A stretch of DNA of 62,267 nt, filler included, from Sphacelaria rigidula (lineage: Eukaryota): the NCBI GenBank assembly GCA_964200075.2. It is 5 parts of 5 records of this genome, joined end to end, with 100 filler letters (N's around TTAATTAATTAA, not from the genome) between each part and the next. Parts side by side here need not be neighbours in the genome. Positions count along the whole stretch, not along the records: positions 1 to 12,375 come from CAXNAA020003840.1; 4 more parts are not named here. The stretch is one strand, 5' to 3'. The first letter of the stretch is position 1. Every line of letters starts with the position of its first letter. Shown here piece by piece: positions 370 through 51,781 of this stretch. The notes beneath the pieces are model-generated. The model did no database searches and had not been told where the DNA came from. It saw nothing but the letters and a program-made list of their open reading frames with translations. The position numbers and the translations under genes are program-made.

Positions 370-872
370 GGTTTTCCTTGTTTGAAGGTCAAAAGGTAAG
401 CCAAACGTCCAAAAGTGAACAACCCGTGGGCCAAAACTCTGTGGGCCATAATATCCGGCCTTAAAACATACATTTATGTACGTATTCACAATATGCTGCT
501 TGCTGCTGCGTTCGACACTGCGCACACTGCATGCCAACCGCAGCGTGACGCCTTCGGCGGTACTACCTGCTCACTGCACAGCGATAGGGTGCAGGGTGAC
601 AAAGCACACCGCAGGAAGTCACATCCTTCGCCTACGAGTAGTATCCCTGTCCTGCGTTGATTTCGCGCTGTCCTCTGCAGTTCGCCACATCATGAACGCA
701 GCCGCCTGTACCTGCGGCCAACTTGTACACGGGGCATCACCCCTCGCTACGTGCTATATCGCTACGCTTGATTCTTTATAGCTGTCTGTGTTGCAGCCAC
801 AGCGTGCATTTGTACCAGGTGGCGCACGCAGGAGTGAAAGGCCGCCTCCGCCATTAATAGCTGCCTACCTCA

Positions 873-988
873 AAAAATCCCTGTGTTGGCCTTTCTCCTG
901 TGTGACCCCGGCTGGTGCACCGACATAAACCGAAAGGTAGAGACCGGCGCCCGGAATAGATGGGACGACAACACACACACGACACACT
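873..988 (+). mobile_element. 3' fragment of tRNA-derived SINE family B with (CA)n tail
   Basis: Reverse complement of the tail end of the full copy at 48091-48443 (CTCCTGTGTGACCCyGGCTGGTGC...AATArATGGGACrACAACACACAC). Confidence 0.7.
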
Positions 989-1145
989 GTCCATAGTACA
1001 CTTTCAACATCTTGTTCATACTAACTGTAGAAATCTTTGACGAGGGTCTAGTACATTTCCACATGTATGTAATAAATTGCTCTGCTTTGCATCGCGCTTC
1101 CGATTTTCTCTTCCTTTCTTATGATGGAAAAGGAGCATAATCGGC

Positions 1146-1560
1146 CCATAGCCATCGTTCACGCCATCGCACGGTGCGAACGGCCTCGTGGTGGTCGAGG
1201 AATGCGCCTGCTGCACGGTACCAAAAATACCGCCAGCCGACTGGAGGTGGACATAAGCTATGTCCAAGTCGCGACTTATTGGACATGGCTTATTATGTCC
1301 ACCTCCAGGGATTGGAATCCATGTCCGTGCTCGTCTCATGTGCTTTGCATCGACACCACAGCAGCTGCAATACACTCACACATTCCGTAGCCACCGTTCA
1401 AGCCATCGTGGGGTGCAAACGGCCTGGTAGCGCAGGAGAAACGCGCCTGCAACACACAGGGCCAAAAAATACATCTATCTGCACCAGACTGGACTTGGAC
1501 ATGGATTTGTCAAAACGCGACTTAGGCAACTTGGACATGAGCTATGTTGGCTGAAGGCAT
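1146..1560. repeat. Diverged tandem duplication, unit about 240 bp
   Basis: CCATAGCCATCGTTCACGCCATCG at about 1146 recurs as CCGTAGCCACCGTTCAAGCCATCG at about 1385, with colinear downstream similarity. Confidence 0.6.
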
Positions 1561-1829
1561 GGAAGCACGTAATCATGTGCTTGCGATTGATAGCGGTCGC
1601 GATGCAGATAAGGACGTCAACAGGTGATAGCCGCTAGTACGATCTACCAGCATAATTCCCCGATGCACTGAGGGTTTAGCCAGCGTGATCAGCATGTATC
1701 AATTGTACAGACAGTGCTCAATAAACTAGAAATGTGCTGCTTTTAGCACGTCTCAGGTGCCTTGCATCGATACCCAACAAGGAGAAGAAGCAATAGCACC
1801 AGTATCAGCAGCATATTTCCTGCCAGTAG

Positions 1830-2110
1830 ATCTACGCGGCTGGGGGTGGGTCTTAATCAGCCGGTGCCGATACTGCTGCTGCTGCTGCTGCCGTTTTTCC
1901 TCATGGGAGAGACGGTCCGCCGTTTCGATCGTGCTACAACGCCCCCGCACCGTGCGGGTAATAGCCACCGTGCTGGAAGGCGCTGGTCCGTACTACCCGC
2001 TGATAAGTCTATGCTTCCCCACTAGGCTACGTGCTGGGAGACATAGCTGTGGGCATTTCTCCGTGCGAGCTGTGCACGTCGGGTGTGTCTCCCACGCGTG
2101 GCTACTGCTG
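1830..2110. repeat. Dispersed repeat with (CTG)n core; uninterrupted copy of the host repeat split by the 2389-3474 element
   Basis: Colinear with 2348-2385 plus 3480-3700; a further inverted partial copy lies at about 2230-2330. Confidence 0.7.
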
Positions 2111-3059
2111 ATGATGGAAATAGAGTCAGCGTCCCGTACAGGGGAAACATTTGATACGTATGTACTCGTACTGAAAATGCGATGTGGGTAACAACACGCA
2201 AACAGATCACAGTGGATTTCAACTAGGGAGGAGGCAATAACGCGCGAAGTGCATGGGTATTGTTGTATTGTCCCACGTCGGAACGTGGACCGTCTCACGC
2301 ACGAGAAGCAGCAGCAGCAGCAGCAGCATGTTTGTTGCCCGTAAATGTACGCGGCTGAAGGTGGGTCTGAATCAGCCGGTGCCAATTACGCTATGACTCC
2401 ATCTGCTCTTTTTTTTGCTCTTTTTCTGCGCTTTTTTTGCTTTTCTGCGTTTTCTAAAAAAATTTCTGCGCCTCTTTTTGTTGTTCTGCTCCTATTTTGT
2501 TCTTGGCCCCTCACCTTAGTCTTAGACTCTTTGTTCTTTCAGTCCGTTACGTTGAAACATACGACCCTACCGCACATCTCTTTGACGTACATCACATTTC
2601 GCATATATTTCTCGGCGATTTACATGATGTGTTGTGTTTCTTGTCTCGTACCATTTGCCTCTCTCATGAACGTGGAACATTTGTTATTATTATTATGAAT
2701 ATCAAATGTGACGCAACGCAAATCCAAGCCAGAGGGTCACATTTGTGCATGTATGTGTTCATCGCTACCACTTCATTCCCTACTAAACGCCTCTTCTAAT
2801 TTCCTCTAAACTTCGTGCTGTACGCGAAGCCCGACGCCTGTCCCTCTCGGTCCGACTGCGGTATTCATGTATTGTTTACCACGATCGCAAATACACCATG
2901 TGAACCAAACATACCCAAGCATAAGCAGAAGACACACCCGTACGCCTGGAAAAAATAAATTGCCGGCCCGACGTCCCCCATTGCCCCAAGCAAAAATCCC
3001 AACCTCTGTGACCTATGTGTTGCATCGACCGTTTCTCAATTTCCCTCACACTAGCCTAT

Positions 3060-3182
3060 ATTGGTCACATTCGTACCGTCGCACGTTCAGCTTTAAATTT
3101 GTACGTCGAAAGTTAAGCTATGATAAGAGGCTAGTAATACGGTGGGGGACCACGAGCGGAGCCCTGATTTGACTTGACTTTT
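3060..3182 (+). pseudogene. 5S rRNA-derived sequence (degenerate; 3' half/internal control region best conserved)
   Basis: AAGTTAAGC-N9-AGGCTAGTAATACGGTGGGGGACCACGAGCGGAGCCCTG resembles the 5S box A to box C region as I recall it for brown algae (AAGTTAAGC...AGGCTAGTACTACGGTGGGGGACCACGTGGGAAGCCCTG); followed by TTTT at 3179-3182. The 5' half is only weakly similar. Confidence 0.65.
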
Positions 3183-3241
3183 GAACAGAGCTCCCCACGT
3201 GGTACCCGTCCCCCACGGTAGTACTAGCCTAGCTTAGCTTT
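3183..3241 (-). pseudogene. Second, convergent 5S rRNA-derived fragment
   Basis: Minus strand reads AAGCTAAGCTAGGCTAGTACTACCGTGGGGGACGGGTACCACGTGGGGAGCTCTGTTC: 5S-like box A and box C with a shortened spacer, and a 5S-like CTGTTC 3' end. Confidence 0.6.
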
Positions 3242-5464
3242 TGACATGAAACGTGAACATTGAATGTGTAACGTGGTTTTTTGCCCGCGAAAATCGCAAG
3301 TTCGCGCTGTCCTGTTGGAAATCTGCGCCAGGCAATCCCAATTATGCTCCATCCTCTGTTATTTTTTTTGAAAATCTGACATATTTCGGTTTTCGTGATC
3401 TTTTCTTCGTGGCCGTTTTTCTGCGCGAAAAACGAAAGTCTGCGTTTTCTGCGGCCGCAGATGGACTCATAGCCTAGTGTCACTGATGCTGCTCTTCATC
3501 GTAGACGGTCCGCGTTTTGACCTAACACGCACGCACCTTACTAGTGACAGTCACCGTGCCGGACAGCGCTGGTACATACTACCCGCTGATGGGTCCATGC
3601 TCACTTACTCGGCGAAGTACTGGGGGATATAGCTGTGCGCATCTCTCTGTAGACGCCGTGAACGTGGAGTGTGTCCCCCACGCGTGGCTACTGCTGGTGG
3701 TGGCATTATTCGGATTCTGTATTACACACTGTTAATAGGGATCCAAGTGCGAGGGAGAGGTCACGTTTTGGGCAAGGTTCTTCAAAGGTTGAAAAATCGT
3801 AAAACTTTTCCGTCACAGAAATCCAATTCCAGACTTGAAATGGCCGGAGACAACCAATTAAAAAAAGTGGAATGTTTCCCTGTGAAATTGTGAAAAAATC
3901 CGCAACATGTAGGCGAACTGCAGGTGAAACAATTGCCAACATCTTCACCTAGCAAAAGACGTGACAAAAAGGGGTGGGTTGATTCTCACCCGGGACAGAA
4001 ATCGAACTCACGGAAGTGGAATTGAGATTCCTTCTTCATAGCATAATGCCGGGATGAATAATCCGAGACGTATCACATTCTAGAGACGGATTATCCTCCC
4101 GTTGACTTTTCTTCGGTTCACGGACCAGGCTTTTTCTTGTCATGGAGTATGACATTGCTCTCGAGATGAACAGTATATGACCATACCATTATTAGCCCAG
4201 GGGGTGAGAATGAGAGTGACGGAAAACTCTTCGGGAAGGATTTTCATGGATGAATATGACTGAACAATTGCAGTGATGAGAAAATAAGCCGTGACACAGC
4301 AAAACGTCGTGCATTATCCAAGAGGTACACTCACCGTACTGTACCATGTACCTTCCAAACCAACTGCATGTCCATCTGGCAACCATCAGACTCGAAGACC
4401 AACATGCGAAGAGGCCACGCCACTGTTCGGTAGCTGACCTACAGTACAGCACCTCACGGTCTGACTAATATGTACACAGGACCGGGCTGCGATGAAGGGG
4501 AAAGCAAAGAAAAATTGTTCCTCCAACACTCAACTTGCCCTAATGAGCTGTCGTAGCGCGATCAGCAGAAAAAACACGAGATGTCCGAATGCGAAGAATC
4601 AACTAGATACCTCATCAACCGTTCCAGTGTCTTACAGATATCCACACTACAAAACTCGATCCCATTATCCTTCAAACGCGTCGAAAAACCGTCATAGGCT
4701 GTCCTCCCACACGCACCGCGAATTCTTGCACACAATTAAGTACTCCAGATAACCCGTTTCGTGGTCATCTCTCTTGTCTTCACCGATGGTGCGCCCACAT
4801 TTTCTGCCGGCCTTCCCGCGGTCTCGACCCTCGAAATGACAAATCGAGGTCAGAAACCACAGTGGAAATAAAAGGAAGAGATGGAGCACGTATCAAGTTA
4901 TGTTTTCTGCGCCACACAAAAAGACTCACGACGAACCCGGAAATATATTGTATCACCACCAACAAATACCAAACCGACCACCTGGAAAAAAAACACACGA
5001 AAAACTGCGGAAAAGGCGTAGCGCGACTGACACGAAAACAACGCACAAAAAGTTTACGCGCCTCAATAGTCAATAGTGTTTCAGGAACACCTCGAGACAC
5101 GGCGCGTTCGGTCGCGGTCGACTACAGGCTGTCGTCGCACTTCGTGACCCAGTTTTGCCAATCTACGGTCATAATCCATTCACCATCTAATGATCATAAT
5201 CCATAGCCGGTCCACGCTGAGGTTTGCGCGACCGAACCCCATCTTCAGCTGGCGAGTCGGTGAACACGACACTGATACATCCAACATCTTACAGTCCTAC
5301 CCCTACCCCCCATTTCACCCTCCCGTCACTGTCATTCCCTGCCCTCTGGGGCACTTCCAAAACACAACGCAAAACTCCTCCTGAGAAAAGAGAGGACAAT
5401 CCGCCCGGCCTGGATTCCCGCTCCCTCCTCCCACGCGATCCATAAAACCAGGAAAAAATGCAGT

Positions 5465-5629
5465 CTACAGGCGGTCAACTTTGCTGAACTGCCCACCACC
5501 AACCACTGTCCGCTTGAGGTCGTTACGGTCTGCAGTCTTGAAGTCGAAGTCACAGCTGTGTTGCTCTGGGTAGCGATGAAGTGAACAGAAGACGTAGTTA
5601 CAGCGACAGGCAATACCAGTGTACCCCAC
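5465..5629 (-). CDS. AN1-type zinc finger protein (A20/AN1 stress-associated protein family), terminal exon
   Basis: Acceptor TGTGAACAG|GTG; encodes VGYTGIACRCNYVFCSLHRYPEQHSCDFDFKTADRNDLKRTVVGGGQFSKVDRL*, the canonical AN1 motif CRC..FC..HRY...H.C.FD(F/Y)K and typical C-terminus. Upstream exons were not found in this contig. Confidence 0.92.
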   Translation of the reverse strand: MGYTGIACRCNYVFCSLHRYPEQHSCDFDFKTADRNDLKRTVVGGGQFSKVDRL

Positions 5630-7878
5630 CTGTTCACAACACGATAAAAAAACGGGTTGTGGCGATGAGAGAAGAGAAAATATTGAGAGGTCAGTACACA
5701 TACCGTTCGAGGGTGAAATGTTGCGGCCAATTAGCCGGTCTTTTGCTCTTTACCGAATGACACACGCTTGGAACTACAGCAGAGATACGCCGAGATTCAA
5801 CTGGATCTCGTTTCGAGCTTGAGAGCGATAGGAAGTGTAGAGCATGTCACCCAACGATTAAACCATTCGACGATCAACCGGACAGGAAAGTAAGGGACGT
5901 TCGACATTGACAACAGCACTACACGGTAAATTACTAAAAAAAAACGCAACAAGAATTGGGGCAGTACGGAAGTCCTCACATAGGACAGTACCACGATCAA
6001 GCGGTAAACGCTAGGACGGGCATCGATTTCACCTGAAAAAAGGATGCATGATCCAGATCGACTACCCTCGTGGTGGTGACCGCGAGGGTAGGCAATCTGT
6101 TCAATGGGCACACTTTTCACTATTTTTCAGATGCCGATGCAACAGATCGTCTACCCTCGCCCGTCAAAGGGTTGATGAGCAACACCTTTTGTTGAGACTC
6201 GAGTTTTTTCATGTGCAATTCGACATGACAAAGGTGAGCAGAAAAAACTGCCGAGCACCCAGAACGGTCAGCCCCCGTAAGATGCGAGCGGTGTTCTATT
6301 CTGGAAGCAAGTGTTCATGATATGAATTTTGGGCATCAACTCTGTGACCTGGAAAAAGTGCATGTGCTGACAATATGCCTCAACACGGATATTGCTCTGC
6401 ACTAGAGAGAATCATGACTGCACTACTGGACGTTACAGCCGTGGTAGCCGGGTCTCGTTCCGGGAAAATACCCCGACGGACAGTCCCGTGAGATAAGTCC
6501 AAGCGGGGACTGGACCTATTTGTTCATTTGTTGAGGTGCGGACAGTACAATGTAGACGACAGTTTGCATTCAGTAATACAGCGGTCTACGGACACCAGAC
6601 ACTAGTTATGGTGACCCCACAAGCGCTGGCCAGGGCTTTTCATCCTTCGCCTGTGTGGAGCTAGGGCGAGGTGTTCTGCGACGAATTGTCAACGGTGAGC
6701 CACTGGGGTCCCCCTGGTGCAGTTTGATTAGACAATTTGTTCTGTACAGGACTTTGTTCACACTGCCAAATGTCAAGCTTTTACCAGAAATTGATGTGGT
6801 GGACGAGCTTAACTCTTTCGGGACCGGGCCTCCAGAACGATCAAGTAGGCTGGTCAGGAATGACGTTTGGCGTCTGCACAAACAGTGGCGTGTTGCTGAA
6901 AATCCGCGAATGTAACCGCACGGTTACGAAGACCGAAACTTTCATCTAGTCTGTTTTCAGGTGCAGGGTGCGCATTAGGTGGTGTGCATCTGATAGAGCA
7001 AGGACTATCAGTCGTGGTGAAGAGCTAGGTTCCAACAGGATGCGGCGACCGGCGGGCCGCCCGCCACTTGTGGCTTTGGATTATTCTTTTCTCCACGTCA
7101 CCTTGCCACACAGCCCATTGTGGTCGGGATGGGCCGCCATATCCTCCTTTTTTGCATGCGGCAGCTTCTTTTCGAAGGGAATCAGCGTTGCGGCGCTCAT
7201 GCATACAACAGTATAGTACGTAGTATAGTGTAGTACCCCTCTCCGACTGAAGCAGCAGCTGCCGCTGCATACACCCTTGCACGTTTTGGGCAGTTTTCGG
7301 CTACCGTGATCAACTGCCTAAATACCGCTTCTTGATCCCCATCCATTCCGTACTTGTTCACTGCACCCTGCAAGTCATCGCCAGAGGGATAAGCAGAACT
7401 CATGGCAGTAGATCCTTTTGTCTTTCCACAGCCCACCTGGTTTTAGGGCATGGTGAAAATGATCACATGGTGGCATGTACACTTCTCCCCGGCTTTTCCG
7501 GTTGACATTGTGTTAGTGTAACTTACTACGTTTTAGTAGGGAATTGAGACCCAAAAAAACACCGGAACACTCGGGAACGGTACTCTGAGTGCAAGTCGTA
7601 TCATATAACCAAGTTCCGACCGCCCTGCGCTTGGAAACCTGCGAAGGCTCATCTGTGCCAGGGATAGGGTACCCACACGATCATTACAGTGGCATCATAC
7701 TCGCCGACAATCCCAGCACTGGTCGTTCGGATCTGGTCGATAAATTTCGCCTCGCCGTGATTGGGCAAGGCACTCCCTGACTTATTTCTTATTATTCCAC
7801 AAACACGGGGTCAACCCTGTGTTAGTGGGGGGTCGGTCCCAAAAGGGTAAATGAAAAAAAGACATTTTCTTACCATTA

Positions 7879-7979
7879 CCCCTTAGACCGCGAGGTTAGT
7901 CTTCTGTTGAATCGGCATCAATATCAAGTAAAAAAAAGTATGCATGATCCAGAAAGAATAGCCTCGCGGTCTAAGGGTT
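7879..7979. mobile_element. About 100-bp MITE, piggyBac-like (TTAA/CCC termini in other copies)
   Basis: TIR CCCTTAGACCGCGAGG...CCTCGCGGTCTAAGGG; related copies at about 6045-6173, 8990-9070, 10741-10842, 28400-28510 and 41765-41865. Confidence 0.65.
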
Positions 7980-10740
7980 GAGAGCAGCCACATCTATCGA
8001 ACTGGTGAGTTCCACGAGGACCGAAGCTTTCTTCAACACGACCCGTGGCGATGACTTGTGTGGGTCCTGATTTATATTATCATTGAAATCCAACAACTTC
8101 GAACCCCTTCATAACCTAAACCTCACAGTTGGTAGTATACCTCGATCCCATACACAGTCTGCGATTTTCTTCCCCTGTATTGGACTTCCTGGCTGCTGGC
8201 GCTCACGTGGGTTTGATCTTTGATAAATTCGCGTAGAAATTCGTCAGAAATTCATATTCCAAGATCAGAACAACTTCAATCTTATAAGAGGTATCTCAAA
8301 CTCGGCTCCCTGTATCCTGGTTTATTCGCTGGCTTTGAGTTGTGTATCATGTCTTCCAGTGGAAGTGATCGCGATTCATGGGAGGACCTGACTTGGCGGT
8401 GAAAGGGTCTCATCATCTGATGAATTATTATCACTTCACTAAAAAAATTACAAAACAAACCAGGACCCCGGGAGCCGAGTTTGACATACCTCTATTGGGA
8501 CCGGACTCCCAGAACCATGGTTTTTGCATGGAGGGACTTGTTTGTGAATGACACCATTTTTAATCAAGAACGACTGACGATGATACCAAGTGACGTGAAG
8601 CCCCCTGCGTGCAGACGGATGAAGGTATCTGATTGGCCAAACAAAACTTACACATCACTACTGCGACGGCGGAGAACAAGGAGCATTTTGGCTCATCACA
8701 CTGTTCGCTTGCTCCTGGAGGTCACCATGATGCCTAGTATGATTTCACCAGGTCACTTCACTTCCTGTTGCTCGTGGGGATTTTTTTCGTCCATTTTTTG
8801 CATTTACACTAGACAACCCTGTATTGGGCCGAAAAAACAACCAATAGCAGATCAAGCGTCCGAAATCAGCACTTGAGTGATCGCCGAGGTACAGAACCCC
8901 AGCGGGATGATCAACTCACATGCTCCTCTTGGACGCTTCATTTTCTCCGATTTCTTCTCCCCTAGATCAAATAACTCTCCGACCACGAGCGTAATCCATC
9001 TGGATCATGCGAAGTTTCTTTCAAGTCAAGTTCATGCCGATATAAAAAATAATCTACCCTCGCTGTCCAATGATCAGCATTACCGTAGTCTTCAATCGAT
9101 GGCGCATATGCCCAGGATCTTGTTTCTTATGCGCGCATGTAGTTCGGCATAAAACGAGGTTTTGCGAATATCCTCTTGCGCTTTTTGGGCATGAATTTTG
9201 TGGACATTTCAGCAGAACAAAAGTAGATAATGCACCCCCTGCCCAGCAGCTAGTAGCTGCCCAGAGGTGCTCGATGTGGTTTGGCACGTCGTGTCGCGGC
9301 GTTTGTGTTGACGATTTCTTCGTTTGTGCATTGTTGCCGATTTCACGTCGTCTTTTGTGCCATATGCAAACGACTTCATGTTGATGTGAGGTTATTGCAA
9401 AAATGTGTCACATTCCACGTCAGGCGGCTGCTCTCGCCACGGCATTACACACCAAATAGTCCAGTCGACAACTGTACTCTGTACAGCGCATGTAGAATAT
9501 TGCACGGTGAAACAGTGGGCTGTGACAGCAGAAAAAATCCACGTGACAGAGGTGCAAACTTCCGCGCCTCAGCAGAGCGACGCGATGGAGAGCGTCGAGG
9601 AGCAGAGGGCGAGAGAACAAGTCCAGATCATGTTCGCTCGCCGTTTCCATCCGGCTGAGAAGGCCAAGCGGAAGGAGAGCGAGATAAAGAGGCCCAGGAC
9701 AACCTCTTGTACCCCCGCCTCTTTATTGTGAGTGTCGGTACCGCTGGAGCGCAACTTGTCAATGTTGGTATCGACCGCCGGCGCTCATTAGTTGTCCTGG
9801 GCCTCTTTGATATCTCGCTCGCCTCCCGCTTGGTCATTGAGAGATGCAAGAAGCTCGGCGAATTAGGGATCTGTACTCTATACTTTAGAATTGGGAAATA
9901 CGAAACTGGTCCTAGACCCATTAGCCCCTGGACGAGGGAATTACCCATGCCTTTCTATTCCCCTCCAACCAAATGATAATCTGTCTAAGCAACACTCCAG
10001 CAAAAAAAGTTGTCTTGCTACGCTATAACTGCGCATCCCTTCGCGAAAAAAACAGTTGCTTTAGAGAATTGCACCATTTTTCACGAGTCCGGGAAAAATA
10101 ATAAATTCGCCTACAAGGAATTCATCAGTGCACGTGTGTGGAGTGAAAGAAATTGGCTCAAAAAGATATGCTTGGCTCGGCGATAACATTGAGAAACAAG
10201 CTTCGCCCGACATAAGGATTTCTTCAGTGATGTCGCCACTTGTGCAGTCATCATCGGCTTTTATGGAACATGGGTTAGCATAGTGGCGTGTCGTTCAGTG
10301 TGTACGTGCATGAAAGATGCCTGAAAGACGACACCTAGTAAATATATGCAAGAGCTCAAGTGTGAGCTGCAAGAGCTGAGTCGCGGAGAGTGACAACGCT
10401 CTAGAATCCAAGAGAGTAGTTAAGGATTTCAAAACCAATGAAGGAAGAGAAGGAAGCGAGCTTTTTTTCGAAGCAAACGTTGTTCTCATGTTGAAAGGTA
10501 CGTTTCATGGGGGGTGCCTCCAGGAACCGCCAAAGCAAGGAAGCGAAAGAGGAGTGTATATTTCACAGTCCAAATAAATCATTGCCGTTTCGCATCACAA
10601 AATATATACGATTTTTCAGGCTTGATCGCTCGTGAGAGAAAAAGCTGACCGCTGGTGAAAAAGTATTTCACGCAATTTCCGCGCTATTCCACGTGCCTGG
10701 GCTGCGCGCACCTGGGTTGCAACGCTGAAGACCAAGCTCA

Positions 10741-12375: not shown

Positions 12376-12475
12376 NNNNNNNNNNNNNNNNNNNNNNNNN
12401 NNNNNNNNNNNNNNNNNNNTTAATTAATTAANNNNNNNNNNNNNNNNNNNNNNNNNNNNNNNNNNNNNNNNNNNN
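12376..12475. other. Artificial contig spacer (N44-TTAATTAATTAA-N44)
   Basis: Identical 100-nt spacers also at 24850-24949, 37323-37422 and 49796-49895; the linker has stops in all six frames. Confidence 0.97.
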
Positions 12476-15310
12476 CTCATCTGGGTACAGCTCAGATGCT
12501 TGGATTCGGGCCGCAAGGCCTGCTGTTTCGATGATACCTAACGCTCGCTCTGCAACACCGTTGAACTGGGGTGAGTCGGCAGTTGTCTTCTCCTGCTTGA
12601 TATTTTTCCTGTCACACAGTTCACCGAATGCACCCTCCAAAAATTCACCCCCGTCATCGCTACGGACTATATCAATTTTTCTCGGGGAGACCCATGCAAT
12701 GTATTTCGCGAAGTATATCTTTGCCTCATCCTTCTTCCGGAGGAAATACAGCTTTGTGTGCCGTGAGTGATCATGTCGGACCATCATTGTGTACGACTTT
12801 CCCCCATAAGACTTGACTGGTTTCGGCCCAGAAAGATCTACAAACACCCTAGGCGCTGACTTAGCTGCTCTCGTGTGCGTCGATCTTGGAATCGGCGCCC
12901 GCAGTCCCTTCGCCTCTGAGCAGCCGCGGCAGGGCTGCAGCTCCCCAGCCAGTTGGTTTCCCTGCTGCTTCGCCGTCTTCCTCCGTAAATCCTCGTGGAC
13001 GTGGGCGTGGGAACAGTGAAGTTCGTTGATGTCAGCGGTCTGGGGGCTAGGTTAAGCCCCCGGGGCAATAACAGCATATGCCGAAGCACACATGTCACTA
13101 CAACTTTGGTCGAGGCGACGGGCGTACATTCTGAGTTGACGTGGTTGTCCGGGTATATTCAGTGTATTGCCTGAATTGAGATCTACCCTGAAACCTGTAC
13201 GACAACCAGTGTAGGTGTATCCCATGTGTTGGACCCTCGTGGGTGACAAGAGGTGATGACGGACACCAGGTACTTGGTCAACATCCACTACTTTTAGGAT
13301 TACATCCTGTCCGTCAGATCTGAAGGCAAGAGACAAATTTCCTCTGCCTACGATCGGGTAAGTACTGCCTCCCGCGCACCGTAGTACCCTACCCTTGCAC
13401 TCTCTGTACTCCGCCATCCCATGGGAATCGTGGTAGAAATGCTGGGTAGCCCCCGTGTCAAACATCCACGGTTCGCCCTCACCCTGCTGACTATCACCCC
13501 CCCCCCGATCAACACTCAATGCATACTCGCCTGTGTCGCCGTTGATGGTGGTGTCGAGAGAGGTGTCGCCGTTGAAAGCCTCCCCATCCGCCACCGAACA
13601 GACGGAGGAGCTGTCGCTGTCGTCGGTCGTGCCCATCGCCATCACCACGTCTTCTTTCTTCGCTGTCGATCTCGGACAGTCCCAGAACGTGTGCCCCTGC
13701 TGATCGCACCTCCCGCAGTATCTCTTCGGGTAGTTCCTGGCCCGATGCGTCGTGTCCTCGTCGCAAACGTGGCAGCGGAGCAGCTGACTAGTCGCCGGTT
13801 TGCCGTCCGACGATACCGACCCAGAGCTACTTGAACTCTGACTCCCGCCGTTTTTCTGACCAAAGCTCTGGGATTTTCCCGGTTTCCCTTTGCGGTGTGC
13901 ACCGCTCGGTTTCCGGTCCCACCCTCGGCAAGGAGAGCGTGGTTGCCCGGGGATGACTTCTTTCCCCGGGCAAGTTCCTGCTTCGAAGATGTTGATTCGG
14001 AGCGCTTTCGGATCGAAGTCAACGCAACCTCCCGTGTCAACGGTCCCTCTCGATCCTCCAGCAGTTGCTTCTGGATGTGATACTCGAAGGGCAACGCGTT
14101 GAGGAATTTCAAGATAATATGGTTTCCGCTTAGTCGTTCATGCTCCTCGTATGAGTTCAGGTTACGTGCAATTTCTTCCATCTCGAGAAGCTTCTGCTCT
14201 GGATCATCACGGACACCAATCTTGACTCCATCGAAGTTATCCAACAAAGCGGTTCTCGCTCCATCTGTTTTGGGGCGAAAGACGTCCTCGAGTGTTCTCC
14301 AAACCGCAGCAGGTGAGTGGATTCTAAGCAAAATGTCTTGCTCTCTCCGTTCTTCTAAACTAGCAACAAGCATACGTCTCACCCTCACGTTGGCTGCCAA
14401 TATGTCTTTTCCATGTCTCCTTTCCAGATATCCCATTTCTGATTCAGGATTACGACATCTACGTCGTGCGACCTATCGCCGGCCATGATAAACACCCAGC
14501 CAATTCCTCAGCCCCTCGCGAAGTTGACCAGTTCATGCCTGTACCGAGCATAATCAGCGCTCTTCCCTGAAATGTTTGGAACGTTCTGTCGAAAACGGGA
14601 ACCCCTGACACATTTCCACTTGTATCGTTTATTTTGATTTACTCGCGTGCGGGGACAAAGCCCCTAGCTTCGTCACTGGTGGCCTTGTTGTCCGTTGCGT
14701 CGCGCGCTCCGTCCTCTAGAACAGCTTGACTCCCGATGTACCGTCGCTCTCTTCGAACTCCAGCACCACGTCGCTCCACTGTTCTATTTATGTTGAATTC
14801 CCCCTGTTGACTATGGGAACCTTCACTATCGAGGACGCCGTTGTTTTCTGCGCCCCCAGCCTCTCTTACTGCCCTCATATTGTCCATGTTGCTCTGTAAT
14901 GTAGCTTGGCTTAGCTGCATATCACGCAAGAGCTGAGCCAAGGAACTGATCTGACTACATAGTCCCTGCAACTGCTCAGTAACACCCTGCTCACCGATAA
15001 CTGTAGCAGGCCCATCACCCTGTTCTGCCATTCTGCCCAACCGGTTGTAACACTAGTGTATTCCGTGGTCCGTGGCGAAGGATAGATAGTTTTATCTTTT
15101 GTATTATTGGAGATTTACTAGACTGAGTCGACCCTATGATAGAGGGATCAGATGTAGAGTGGGCTCAGCAGGCAGCGTGGTAGCTACCTGAGCGGGGTAC
15201 TGTAGTCACACACAGTTGACTACTAGTACCCGTGCGTCTCTGCATAGATCTATCCGCACATGTGCATGTTCCCTCAGTGTATCTGTTCACATGAACAGCG
15301 ATAACTGACA
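12476..15310 (-). mobile_element. Ty1/copia LTR retrotransposon, 5' part (gag, zinc knuckles, protease, integrase), frameshifted and truncated by contig end
   Basis: Gag-like ORF 13642-14436; knuckles CHVCDEDTTH..NY and CGRCDQQGHTFWDC at about 13670-13795; protease WMFDTGATQH; pre-integrase H..H...CRGC; integrase core VFVDLSGP...IVRSDDGGEF...DSPQFNGVAER. Integrase directly follows protease, the copia order. Candidate 5' LTR 15046-15310 (TGT...ACA) is less certain. Confidence 0.93.
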
Positions 15311-24849: not shown

Positions 24850-25421
24850 NNNNNNNNNNNNNNNNNNNNNNNNNNNNNNNNNNNNNNNNNNNNTTAATTA
24901 ATTAANNNNNNNNNNNNNNNNNNNNNNNNNNNNNNNNNNNNNNNNNNNNGACAAAAAAACAGAAAAAGACACGTGACACAAGGAGAGTAGTATAGCCACC
25001 ATGTTAGGGGTTCAGCTCAGGAGAAAAAAAAAAGCCATAGCAATATCAATACGAGTTGTAAGAGTGTGCGAGAACACATGACGCGCGAGAACTACCACAA
25101 AAAAATATTTAGTACCTGGCACCAATTGAATGGCATATATTCTACTGGCGGCGTGTTGTTGGACACGATTAGTGTGAGTAAAGTAAGTATGAAAGTTGTG
25201 TACGAGTACGGAGTGCTTGTTTATTTGGACCAACGGGACTTTACAGCGCTATTTGGTTGTATGTGATCATCAATCATCAAAATTTGGTCATTCTCTGCTG
25301 TCCGTCGGTACCGACTGTTGCGCTGTTGTTGCGCTGACCCAACAGGATCTGATCGGCGTGGCCTCATAACAAGATCTCACAGCTTACGACATTCTTGGCC
25401 TTTGTGAGAAGCAGAAGCAGT

Positions 25422-36865: not shown

Positions 36866-37422
36866 GTGTGTTTCGACCCGTTCTAAGCTGTAGCACGCAA
36901 TTCACCATTGTACTTACTTTTCTGGGACGAAGTATTTTGTCCCCCTCGCATATTGATTTGGAAACGAAGCCTACCAACCAGCATTTGATGTCATGTATGG
37001 GCGTTCCCTTCAAAGTTTCCAGCATTTTCGAGTCGATTCCGCCCCCCCCACTAAGAAGCCGAAACAATGGTTGAAATCGAATGATGTATTTGTAGTGAAA
37101 ATTGATGGTATGTGTCTGACGGGCTCTCTGCGTGTGTGGACGGGAGGGGGCGAGATAGATGCGACCACTCTATGTCATGTGTACTATTTTTTTTCTTCGG
37201 GTGTATAGTTTCGGCGAGTCGGTCGCCCGCAAGACATCTATCGATCAGCGTTTGCTTTTACCGGGCATGTTGTGTAGCCGGCGGCCCCAGATACATTCGT
37301 GGGTCACCGATTTTTTTCCGGGNNNNNNNNNNNNNNNNNNNNNNNNNNNNNNNNNNNNNNNNNNNNTTAATTAATTAANNNNNNNNNNNNNNNNNNNNNN
37401 NNNNNNNNNNNNNNNNNNNNNN

Positions 37423-49697: not shown

Positions 49698-51781
49698 CTG
49701 AAAACGATCGCAAGGGGAGAAGACGGGGGGGGGGGGGGGGACAAACACGAGAGAAGAAGGAAGAGGGGAGGGGGGGAGGAAGAAGAAACGATGAGNNNNN
49801 NNNNNNNNNNNNNNNNNNNNNNNNNNNNNNNNNNNNNNNTTAATTAATTAANNNNNNNNNNNNNNNNNNNNNNNNNNNNNNNNNNNNNNNNNNNNTTGAT
49901 GAGGGGAGCGGGCGTGAAAGAGTGGTAGTCTTGGACTCTTTTTGGTGCGCGGTGGGGAAGGGCGGAGGGGTGTTACATCATATTCGAAAATCCCCGTCAA
50001 TGGGCACACTCGGCTGCGGCAGCATCAGCATCTTTAAAATCGCGACGGAAGTGCGTGTACACAGGCGGTTGTTTATTGAGTAGCTTTGCGATCCCGTCCG
50101 TCTTCGGCAGTCGCTGCGCTCATCCTCTTCAGCAGAACGGATGGACAACTGTTTTCAATCATCGCCGATAATCACGAATCCAACACTTTTGTTGCTCAGG
50201 CAGCACCGTCAATACCGTCCCGCACATGCGAGGTTCGGCTTCGTACTAGTAGTCAGATCGACTTGCTCGAGTGACCGTCTTATCATTATCCTAGCCACCG
50301 GTTCGGGTGATTCGCTTGTTGACTCCAATCCCTGTCATCATCAGAGTAGGAATCTATAGAAGTGAGCAACTTGAGTAAGTATGGATGTCTTTCTGCACCT
50401 GCTGTGGTGTCCTGTGCCTGATTGTTGAACTTGTTGGTAACTCTAACATGCCTTTGTGATGCGCGCACGCCACGCGGGCGTGTTAGTCGCTTTACTGCTG
50501 TACTAAGTCTCATGTTCATTCATTCACTTGCACTAATGCATGCTCGTCAATATCTTCTCCCCCCGCGTGGCGACCGTACACGTTGACCTGTTGATGTGGC
50601 AGCCGCGAGTTCGAGAACCAAAGATGGGACCCGAACAGCGATTTCACCACCCTCAAGGCCTTCGATCGCACCGAAACCCGGGTCGGCAAGGTGCGGCGGC
50701 AACGGTTTGTCGATTAGTGCACGTGGACGTTTTCTCTTTTCACCGCCGGCGAAGGCAGTGTAGTGTATTCCAGCCGTATGCGTGCGCAAGGGCTGTCATC
50801 TTGTACCTGCTAACCTGTGGAGGTGAAGCGCTGGCTTACTCGGGTTTCCGCTATTGGCGATAGCCGCGTCAAGTGCTTGTTAATCGAGGAGGCGTGTCTC
50901 TTGCGATGTACTTGGTGTCTTGTAAATGCCAGGACACTTCAATCGACGGGTGATTCACGCGTCTGGTTCCCATATCCATGTATTTGAAGCCGCCGAAGAA
51001 GGTGATGTCAGATCATTACCTGATCCGGCCGGTTCGTAGATGGTCATGTGGTGAGACAATTTTCCCGGCCCGAATATGAACTCGTGAGAGTCGTTCCCTG
51101 TTCCGAAACGGTCATGAGAGATTTAATTCTTGGTGCTCGGTGAAAGGAGAAGGTGCGAAATGTTGTTTCAGTCCACAGATGGAACAAGTAGGATCTCGCC
51201 CGTATCGTCATGTGAGCACCCTTTCCTGTATATCCAATAACTTGAAAAGTGCACAGCGTTCATCGCAATCCAGAAGGCGTAATTTTCACAGGTATCCGGT
51301 ACAGTGCATGTTGACTGGTGGCACCTGGGACGCACACATACGGTGGTACTTGTCATGGCCCTTGAAAAGTGCCGCACTAGCAAGTCCTAGGTTCCATGGC
51401 ACACCACACTGCCACGTCGTGAGTAAAAAACTGTGGCAATAAGCGACGAACGTAACGTTTGAACTGGCTTGAAAGTAAGGGGGTTGGGGTTCGGGCTGTA
51501 CGGTTTCAGTGATTTTCTGCGTGAGGTCTAGCGGGATCTGGACGGGTGCCAGTGGGGCATGTCATGGTACAAATACCTCAGGGGGCAGAGACAGGTACCG
51601 CTGGCATCTCGTCACGTGCCGATGCTACATGACGTGACAGGGGGACGTACCAGTACCAGTGCCACCATCCCACGACAATGTGGGGTATCCGCAACTATTG
51701 CATCCCAGCGCTTACGACATGTTTGGATCACCCACTATTTCCTCTTGTTTTCCTGCTTTTTTCCCTGTTTTTTTTCAACAG

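Follow-up and report, generated by a model that had tools for sequence, protein, structure and literature searches.

A candidate non-autonomous TIR element carrying an inverted pair of 5S rRNA-like segments in Sphacelaria rigidula

Here, we describe a candidate terminal inverted repeat (TIR) element of Sphacelaria rigidula that carries, tail to tail, two segments resembling the promoter-bearing part of the 5S rRNA gene. We consider it fairly probable that this is a non-autonomous, TA-targeting TIR element of a multi-copy family with a captured fragment of nuclear 5S origin that has been duplicated in inverted orientation. In this scenario, a TA within a host repeat served as the insertion site, and the element would depend on a transposase provided in trans that binds the TIRs together with the TCTGC(G) subterminal repeats. 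The 5S piece would have been acquired from a 5S gene or pseudogene of the host, possibly by template switching in gap repair, and the captured piece would then have been inverted-duplicated, as in non-autonomous DNA elements. Because transposition needs no such module, any function of the 5S-like module would be secondary.

The element and its insertion into a host repeat

The window, i.e., the whole stretch of DNA that was analyzed (62,267 nt, filler included), contains the element at positions 2389–3474 on the plus strand (1086 bp, 45% G+C), as delimited by an uninterrupted copy of the host repeat and by contigs that join the two sides of the insert. First, this uninterrupted copy (copy A, 1786–2117, plus strand) provides an empty site within the window for the interrupted copy, the left and right parts of which lie at 2304–2386 and 3503–3703, both on the plus strand. 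On the left host side, 1786–1871 of copy A aligns with 2304–2386 (70 of 86 positions identical, E 8e-20), and on the right, 1910–2117 aligns with 3503–3703 (156 of 208, E 1e-36). An empty site had been placed at 1830–2110 in the preliminary description; since copy A aligns to both sides of the insert, with alignments spanning 1786–2117, this range was roughly correct. Second, contigs from three DNA-type runs bridge the insert by passing from 2382, 2383 or 2387 to 3483 or 3487 and skipping 1099–1100 nt. These contigs are paralogous empty sites, and in one of them GCCAATAT is read at the position of the left TA. The only empty sites available are diverged paralogues (75–81%), which represent loci other than the filled site. 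Third, the element is flanked by TA at 2387–2388 and at 3475–3476, which is a putative 2-bp target-site duplication, two bases alone being a weak sign.

The two TIRs, at 2389–2406 (plus strand) and 3457–3474 (minus strand), are each 18 nt long and coincide exactly with the ends of the insert. They agree at 16 of 18 positions, the outermost base being mismatched (C versus G); extended by the TA, the inverted arms 2387–2406 and 3457–3476 are 90% complementary over 20 nt. These observations bear out the 18-bp TIRs with TA flanks that had been described earlier and, together with the copy A alignments and the bridging contigs, uphold the proposal of a TA-flanked TIR insertion into a host repeat. 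A search of the window with the 17-nt TIR core, allowing at most three mismatches, returned two matches, i.e., just the two TIRs, against a mean of 0.23 in shuffled sequence. Inside the TIRs, the repeat TCTGC(G) occurs five times on the left (2402–2489) and four times on the right (3322–3452), on the plus strand on both sides. Eight of the nine TCTGC copies fall within the terminal 120 and 140 nt of the element, and none of 2000 shuffles matched this concentration. A second left end, suggested by a resemblance between 2382–2417 and 3338–3370, was rejected (score 26, equalled in 5 of 500 shuffles, and driven by T-runs). Matches to the TIR pattern in genome contigs (52 loci) and viral contigs (23 loci) were likewise set aside as single chance occurrences in unrelated bacteria and viruses; further similarity to the element was found at none of these 75 loci.

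Between its ends, the element contains 17 stop-to-stop ORFs of at least 40 amino acids, the longest of which has 120. A Pfam scan of 7 of the 17 gave nothing under the default cutoff of 0.001. A weak match to DUF7296 (E 0.13, 13.3 bits versus a cutoff of 27) concerns an ORF at 3399–3629 that extends beyond the end of the element. A transposase domain was absent from all 56 ORFs of at least 130 amino acids in the window. A copia ORF had a eukaryotic profile in a protein atlas, with diatoms, plants and oomycetes among the top entries, too weak a signal to place the organism. As far as its sequence indicates, the element is without coding capacity.

The element is a member of a multi-copy family. 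Its body is partly covered by many contigs that are 80–95% alike in the three DNA-type runs, and in run X1 the contig depth of body bins is 600–9,100 versus ∼71 for a single-copy contig, although contig-derived depth does not equal copy number and such ratios are rough. A second copy was found neither elsewhere in the window nor, as a complete copy with both TIRs, among the paralogous contigs of the runs. The family probably belongs to a TA-duplicating superfamily, e.g., Tc1/mariner. The termini of the element (CGCTA.../GGCTA...) are unlike those given for Ectocarpus TcMar families. Duplications of 2 bp are also made by superfamilies other than Tc1/mariner, and the families of Ectocarpus include one that is EnSpm-like and has a 2-bp target-site duplication (PMC12477816).

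The 5S-like arms of the internal palindrome

The plus 5S-like unit (3063–3175, plus strand, 113 nt) runs colinear with 5S over the entire length of the gene, aligning with positions 1–120 of the Rfam model RF00001 (12.0 bits) and scoring 30.7 bits with a second covariance model, R1. Its likeness to 5S is clear only at 5S positions ∼49–108, the promoter-bearing part. This plus arm (3110–3167, plus strand; 5S positions 49–108 by profile and alignment) holds box A, the intermediate element and the box C region, and within it a 21-nt core (3130–3150, plus strand) is identical at 20 of 21 positions to the matching place in true 5S genes. The first 47 nt of the unit are near random in their identity to 5S and, therefore, colinearity with the whole gene rests on length and on helix I, in which eight of nine pairs are retained; when aligned to either model, the unit has helices II and III disrupted. 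The distance from box A to box C is 2 nt shorter than in native 5S, and the unit is followed on the plus strand by a TTTT run at 3179–3182, within the hairpin loop, so that the near-native spacing and the TTTT described earlier both stand. By alignment, the intermediate-element region is changed. By minimum free energy (MFE), the plus unit alone neither forms a 5S-like fold nor is unusually stable (z +0.54). Scoring 12 bits against 38 in Rfam and lacking a 5S-like fold, this unit is no 5S gene.

The minus arm (3186–3237, minus strand) is an inverted copy of 5S positions ∼52–107 (nhmmer E 6.7e-7; R1 12.5 bits, E 0.26). Approximately 10 nt are deleted between its boxes, as expected from the shortened spacer noted previously, and in addition box C is split by a 6-nt insertion. 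RF00001 gave no match in the minus-arm scan, and a match to SOX2OT in the same scan is noise. Of the two convergent promoter modules originally proposed, the plus segment thus keeps its near-native spacing whereas the minus segment is truncated and has a split box C; for the minus arm, an origin as a by-product of inverted duplication is likelier than a role as second promoter. A distance of 35 nt separates the two inverted 5S-like copies. Their inner arms, 3128–3150 and 3208–3230, are 91% complementary over 23 nt, in agreement with the complementary arms reported before, and belong to a longer, imperfect inverted match of 109 nt. Because the damaged copy lies inverted and tail to tail with the plus arm, the two form an imperfect palindrome of ∼140 nt (3105–3245). 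The corresponding hairpin has an MFE of −75.7 kcal/mol (z −9.17), and none of 200 shuffles was equally stable. Rfam matches to mir-679, mir-629 and mir-608 (E 0.11–3.5, 17–20 bits versus thresholds of 72–90) reflect hairpin shape only.

The relation of the arms to 5S was assessed with RF00001 and with models built from 5S genes that carry the core. RF00001 gave no match at its gathering threshold (38 bits) in the whole window and no match in a 401-nt scan. In a 141-nt scan it was the sole family listed, at 12.0 bits and E 4.8, or E ∼1e-3 counting 5S alone; at 12 bits against a gathering threshold of 38, the comparison is not significant by Rfam's rule. In metagenome contigs, all 49 exact matches to the 21-nt core pattern occupy the same position within canonical 5S genes, and the 11 core-bearing loci that were tested all pass RF00001 with 87–107 bits. 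An nhmmer profile built from 16 distinct 5S genes matched the window at 3110–3167 (E 1.2e-8) and at 3237–3186 (E 6.7e-7), the next match having E 1.1. R1 aligned 3063–3175 with its positions 1–119 (30.7 bits, E 1.6e-6, noise ceiling 11.8 bits), in the same columns of the plus unit as RF00001. The profile and R1 scores are partly circular because the 5S genes behind them had been retrieved by means of the 21-nt core of the window itself. Once both cores were masked, what remained of the arms lacked significance (E 4.2 for the minus-arm flank, the plus-arm flank being absent from the matches listed). In run X1, the 39-nt core at 3128–3166 is common to a sequence present at ∼160,000 summed contig depth, which continues like the 3' end of 5S followed by a T-run. 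On these grounds, both arms appear clearly 5S-derived. The two tail-to-tail 5S segments of the preliminary description are recovered in that the profile and the alignment place a 5S-type core in both arms, while the significance of the match under RF00001 is not.

Origin and possible activity of the palindrome

We regard it as unlikely that the palindrome (∼3095–3257) is a separate mobile unit nested in an unrelated TIR element, either as a 5S-derived SINE-like element inserted twice tail to tail or as a 5S-armed foldback MITE, in which case it would not be a conserved part of the TIR family. This idea draws on the observation that the 5S-like core is far commoner than the element body in run X1 (∼160,000 versus 600–9,100 summed contig depth). 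Moreover, ∼50 contigs per run begin matching at 3128 and share upstream sequence, and 12–16 contigs diverge at 3166 into a 5S-like 3' end and a T-run; contigs that enter and leave at these points indicate that 5S-like units exist outside the context of the element. Several joints and one loose end also fall at 3095–3098 and 3257, i.e., at the edges of the palindrome. However, the extreme depth is limited to 39 nt, for which the organism's own 5S genes are the simplest source, and just beyond the core the depth drops to ∼3,650, inside the range of the element body. By eye, neither the palindrome nor its arms are flanked by a target-site duplication, an A-rich or LINE-like tail, or TIR-type ends. 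Finally, the module is tied to the body and left end of the element in paralogous contigs, which join 2416 to 3098, 2438 to 3097, 2589 to 3095 and 2866 to 3085; in the first of these joints, the 37 letters in between are similar to the left subterminal part of the element. The sides of these joints are 21–48 nt long, 80% alike and partly T-rich and, therefore, some may be false. On the other side of the module, one contig of run X8 passes from the minus arm into the right body (3190–3357, 89% identity).

Capture of a 5S fragment by the element is compatible with a functional module, as suggested in the preliminary description, in which selection would maintain the promoter part in the manner of SINE3, Cassandra and Ajax. 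With TFIIIA/TFIIIC on the plus unit, Pol III would transcribe it up to the TTTT at 3179–3182, or read-through of the palindrome would give rise to a hairpin RNA from which small RNAs are processed. We consider such activity quite unlikely. Consistent with it, conservation is uneven, with the box A/box C stretch kept (20 of 21 positions in the core) and the remainder of the unit near random, and, among the matches listed, 3128–3166 has no position at which the majority departs from the abundant sequence of 5S type. The T-run follows the plus unit at native distance, and the hairpin is highly stable. None of the runs listed as containing the stretch is recorded as RNA. In run X8, which is RNA by guess, two module bins reach 740–837 versus 0.5–75 elsewhere in the element, and a single module-type contig accounts for 840 of 1,102; this depth, which could derive from other copies, is a lead, not proof of expression. 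In 5S-carrying retroelements, Pol III transcripts feed into retrotransposition. Cut-and-paste movement does not pass through RNA, and it is therefore not obvious why a promoter would be selected for. Furthermore, the intermediate-element region of the plus arm is altered, spacing and box C are disrupted in the minus arm, and the plus unit has neither a 5S-like nor an unusually stable fold. Because the TTTT on the plus strand lies within the loop, the hairpin would be missing from an RNA that Pol III made from the plus unit. The more specific proposal that the palindrome is the conserved core of an amplified DNA-transposon or MITE family, and stays near-identical to the host 5S control region because it recruits TFIIIA, TFIIIC and Pol III, is in our view also quite unlikely. 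If true, such recruitment would yield a small 5S-like RNA or a hairpin precursor of small RNAs, or would serve for chromatin or nucleolar targeting, and the family would be the first of the cut-and-paste type to use a 5S promoter and, within class II, the equivalent of SINE3, Cassandra and Ajax.

That the arms resemble 5S by chance, as those of an ordinary internal hairpin, is hardly credible: the unmet curated threshold of Rfam and the nonsignificant core-masked flanks speak for it, but the core agrees at 20 of 21 positions with a motif located within 5S genes in all 49 environmental matches, AAGTTAAGC, CACG, CCCTG and the T-run surround it in colinear order at near-native spacing, and two independent models (RF00001 and R1) align the same columns.

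Relation to known elements and significance

In Ectocarpus, a brown alga, TcMar-N families are non-autonomous and of the Tc1/mariner type (PMC12477816). The element resembles these and MITEs with TA duplications in having TIRs and TA flanks, in being noncoding and multi-copy, and in its presumed mobilization in trans (PMC12477816). It differs from TcMar-N in its ends, which are CGCTA and GGCTA rather than CAGTG, CCGTA, CAGAT, CAGTC or CAGAA, in its greater length (1086 bp), and in its 5S-derived palindrome (PMC12477816).

Fragments of the 5S promoter have repeatedly been taken up by the retroelements SINE3, Cassandra and Ajax (PMC10946416; PMC10886601). As in the heads of SINE3 and other 5S-derived SINEs, the internal promoter region is the best-kept portion of the 5S-derived stretch (PMC10946416). 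SINE3, however, is retroposed, has its 5S head at the 5' end and a LINE-related or simple tail, and is without TIRs (PMC10946416), whereas the present 5S unit occupies an internal position, terminates in TTTT, has an inverted copy of itself next to it, has no tail or flanking duplication of its own, and lies within a TIR element with 2-bp TA flanks. With the TRIMs Cassandra of plants and Ajax of nemerteans, the element shares its non-autonomous nature and the presence of two 5S promoter fragments (PMC10946416; PMC10886601); Ajax, like the plus unit, keeps only the part from box A through the intermediate element to box C and does not have the 5S RNA fold (PMC10886601). In Cassandra and Ajax, the copies are direct, one in each LTR, and accompanied by a PBS, a PPT and 4–5-bp duplications (PMC10946416; PMC10886601), while those described here lie next to each other in inverted orientation, inside an element bounded by TIRs and TA. 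A repeat search of the element found no long direct terminal repeats.

Among cut-and-paste elements, MER6, which carries a SINE V domain, similarly spreads captured SINE-related sequence (PMC6887750), and Pack-type non-autonomous elements similarly spread a captured fragment (PMC12477816). In contrast to both, the captured piece is here a 5S rRNA gene fragment and is palindromic. The review table in PMC10946416 lists no DNA transposon with 5S-derived sequence, and none was found in the literature searched for algae and stramenopiles. Among transposable elements, a 5S fragment has so far been described only for retroelements, and a cut-and-paste carrier would be a new combination. Plain sequence capture would show how 5S-like sites scatter through a genome, where they can confuse 5S annotation or FISH. 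Alternatively, the element may represent another use of the 5S control region, in factor binding or as a source of hairpin RNA.

Borders and body of the element

The 1086-bp element at 2389-3474 is bordered by an inverted repeat, which a repeat search placed at 2387-2406 and 3457-3476 (20 nt per arm, 90% complementary). Each arm can be divided into TA and an 18-nt terminal inverted repeat (TIR); the two TIRs match at 16 of 18 positions, with a mismatch at the outermost base, so that the 18-nt TIRs with TA on both sides reported in the preliminary description are present. In the 62-kb window, a 17-nt TIR core has two matches at ≤3 mismatches, both at the element ends (shuffle mean, 0.23). An uninterrupted copy of the host repeat, previously pointed out as an empty site, indeed aligns on either side of the element, with 1786-1871 matching 2304-2386 (70/86) and 1910-2117 matching 3503-3703 (156/208); therefore, the 1086 bp are an insert in the second, interrupted copy of this repeat. 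At 80% likeness, several contigs from three public DNA-type sequencing runs (X1, X3 and X4) join 2382, 2383 or 2387 to 3483 or 3487, omitting 1099-1100 nt with a few extra letters in between. These contigs are paralogous host-repeat copies without the insert. One of them reads ...TGCCAATATTGCTGCT... over the insertion point, which fits TA as the insertion target. A 2-bp TA duplication is likely but not proven, because the sole available empty sites are diverged paralogues. The host repeat is itself high-copy (its summed contig depth per X1 bin goes up to ~60,000) and contains a CTG/CAG microsatellite; an inverted CAG tract nearby (2303-2329) pairs with 1865-1918.

The element contains 17 stop-to-stop ORFs of at least 40 aa, the longest of 120 aa. 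A Pfam scan of the seven longest gave nothing under the default cutoff, and the ORF at 3399-3629, which extends beyond the element end, matched DUF7296 weakly (E 0.13; 13.3 bits vs the 27-bit cutoff). No second copy of the element is found elsewhere in the window, and none of the 56 window ORFs of at least 130 aa has a transposase domain, the only domains in these ORFs being Ty1/copia gag, beta-barrel and integrase pieces at 12428-14472. The latter belong to a minus-strand Ty1/copia LTR retrotransposon remnant. Its ORFs, which lie in different frames and are broken up by masked sequence, match Retrotran_gag_2 (E 1.9e-7), Pol_BBD (E 2.9e-11) and rve (E 1.4e-5), the last of these below cutoff. 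The N runs, four evenly spaced pairs of 44 nt (352 N in all; 12376-12475, 24850-24949, 37323-37422 and 49796-49895), are masked stretches and not biology.

TCTGC(G) repeats mark both element ends, with eight of nine copies, all on the plus strand, within the terminal 120+140 nt; none of 2000 shuffles had as many there. Many run contigs, 80-95% alike, cover 2431-2658, 2591-2819, 2684-2947 and other element parts, and X1 contig depth is 600-9,100 in bins of the element body vs 71 for a 3.2-kb single-copy contig. Because summed contig depth is not copy number, we state only that the element belongs to a family of several to many copies. Within the element, the body resembles a sub-repeat mosaic. 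The bins at 2676-2843 have 4-7 times their neighbours' depth, and run contigs have loose ends at 2687 and 2733. Near the right end, 3338-3370 resembles the left junction at 2382-2417 in direct orientation (CCAATTA, a TIR-like stretch and a T-run; score 26, equalled by 5 of 500 shuffles); this may be chance or what remains of a second left end.

5S ancestry of the inner arms

Several lines of evidence bear on the origin of the two inverted arms inside the element. First, a 21-nt core common to both arms, with two degenerate positions, had 49 matches in 48 loci among 241 million metagenome records; all 49 lie at one and the same place within canonical 119-nt 5S genes, and 11 of 11 tested loci passed the Rfam 5S family RF00001 (87-107 bits). 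All matches have C and G at the degenerate places and, thus, each window arm matches the natural motif at 20 of 21 positions. Second, a profile of 16 distinct full-length 5S genes (45 in all) matched the plus arm (3110-3167; E 1.2e-8; 5S positions 49-108) and the minus arm (3237-3186; E 6.7e-7; 5S positions 52-107), the next window match having E 1.1. Third, R1, a covariance model from 11 of the metagenome 5S genes run with filters off, aligned over model 1-119 to the plus unit (3063-3175) with 30.7 bits (E 1.6e-6) and gave 12.5 bits (E 0.26) to 3187-3230 on the minus strand, among 19 matches at E ≤10 with the top unrelated match at 11.8 bits. The profile and R1 carry a circularity caveat, their genes having been retrieved by the window's own 21-nt core; after masking of both cores, the remaining flanks were not significant by themselves.

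Rfam had no match at gathering in the whole window and no 5S match in a scan of 401 nt. In a 141-nt scan, RF00001 was the sole family listed, its model positions 1-120 aligning to 3063-3175 (+) with 12.0 bits and, counted over 4227 families, E 4.8; the minus arm had no 5S match. The RF00001 check proposed earlier for both strands thus remained far under the 38-bit threshold, while aligning the same columns. The 5S case rests on the specificity of the core (49/49), on smaller matches around it that are colinear with 5S (AAGTTAAGC, CACG, CCCTG and a T-run) and on the alignment of the same columns by Rfam's independent model. On these comparisons, the 5S ancestry of both arms is considered established and chance unlikely, and the preliminary observation holds, its structural interpretation (TIRs, empty site, 5S arms) being largely right. 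One metagenome contig has its canonical 5S gene (2897-3015) ~2.5 kb downstream of a eukaryotic LSU rRNA 3' end (1-329) on the same strand, and is a linked 5S-rDNA arrangement.

Module architecture and variants

The plus unit is as long as a whole 5S gene; in both model alignments, its helix I ends can pair (8/9) and helices II and III are broken, and identity to 5S is close to random over its 5' 47 nt. On its own, it neither adopts a 5S-like fold nor exceeds shuffled sequence in stability: 139 of 200 shuffles reach its -26.2 kcal/mol (z +0.54). Its first 12 nt (3063-3074) recur at 2735-2746 (11/12). In Xenopus, the usual coordinates of 5S box A to box C are ~+50 to +97. The well-kept part of the 5S-like arm spans box A, intermediate element and box C, as conceived in PMC10886601. 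The near-native spacing ascribed to the plus segment holds to 2 nt (short), with a changed intermediate region; the shortened minus spacer is also borne out (~10 nt missing between the boxes), and there box C is split by 6 nt. The expected TTTT stop follows the plus unit at 3179-3182; the minus strand from 3241 to 3060 has no T4 run. Both arms, described as complementary, form a hairpin of 140 nt whose stability of -75.7 kcal/mol (z -9.17) was attained by none of 200 shuffles, and the palindrome is limited to the 5S-derived part.

Extreme X1 depth (~160,000) occurs only over 39 nt, 3128-3166; directly outside, at 3120, it is ~3,650, within the element-body range. Contigs leaving at 3166 (12-16 per run) continue as GTGCTGTTTCTTTTT..., resembling the 3' end of a 5S gene and its terminator; most simply, the organism's own 5S genes share the 39-nt core. 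The 41 rows shown, beside 398 further rows, have no majority difference within 3128-3166, so the plus core and the abundant sequence may be identical. In each run, about 50 contigs start matching at 3128, preceded by ...ACGTCAAAAGTTAAGCC, which is homologous to element 3101-3119 minus 8 nt; 11 X1 contigs that make up half of the depth at 3120 skip these 8 nt as well. Thus, a family of module variants exists. Because these eight plus-arm nucleotides (3120-3127) are lacking in about half of the related depth and in the minus arm, the family may typically have a shorter spacer, and this copy may have acquired its near-native box spacing secondarily.

Origin and possible role of the 5S sequence

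The best reading is that the element is a non-autonomous, TA-targeting TIR element that would have captured a 5S gene fragment and would carry it as an inverted duplication. The chief competing reading, a nested insertion in which a separate 5S-derived unit landed inside the element, draws on edges at 3095-3098 and 3257 and on module variants with other continuations; however, the palindrome is surrounded by neither a duplication nor a tail, and contigs link the module to the element. Specifically, a joint 2416->3098 is found in all three DNA-type runs, its 37 intervening letters resembling the left subterminal region, run contigs also have joints 2438->3097 and 2589->3095 (sides 37-48 nt) and 2866->3085, and a contig of X8, a public run only guessed to be RNA, covers 3190-3357 at 89% identity. 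These contigs suggest that there are shorter relatives with the module directly next to the left end or body. They provide moderate evidence that the module is part of the element family, and only moderate because of the short sides, some of them T-rich.

For an element with a captured 5S fragment, the module may putatively serve to recruit Pol III or to produce hairpin RNA. Uneven conservation and X8 depth on the module are leads, the latter from a run whose RNA nature is a guess. Against such a role, the minus arm is damaged, the intermediate region is altered, the T-run sits within the hairpin loop and a cut-and-paste element requires no RNA copy.

The element shares its working mode with abundant TA-duplicating non-autonomous elements, e.g., of Ectocarpus (PMC12477816), while its termini match none listed there for Ectocarpus families, a comparison by listed termini and not consensus sequences; the available text and five supplementary files of that paper do not mention 5S rRNA. 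In the table of rDNA-derived TE sequences in PMC10946416, 5S promoters appear only in SINEs and TRIMs, and the sole DNA transposon is Pokey, with IGS repeats. Across literature titles and abstract starts, with Repbase outside this scope, no 5S-derived sequence is described in DNA transposons, MITEs or brown algae. The element lacks the features that define SINE3 and Cassandra/Ajax, although, as in both, the promoter part is what is left of its 5S fragment.
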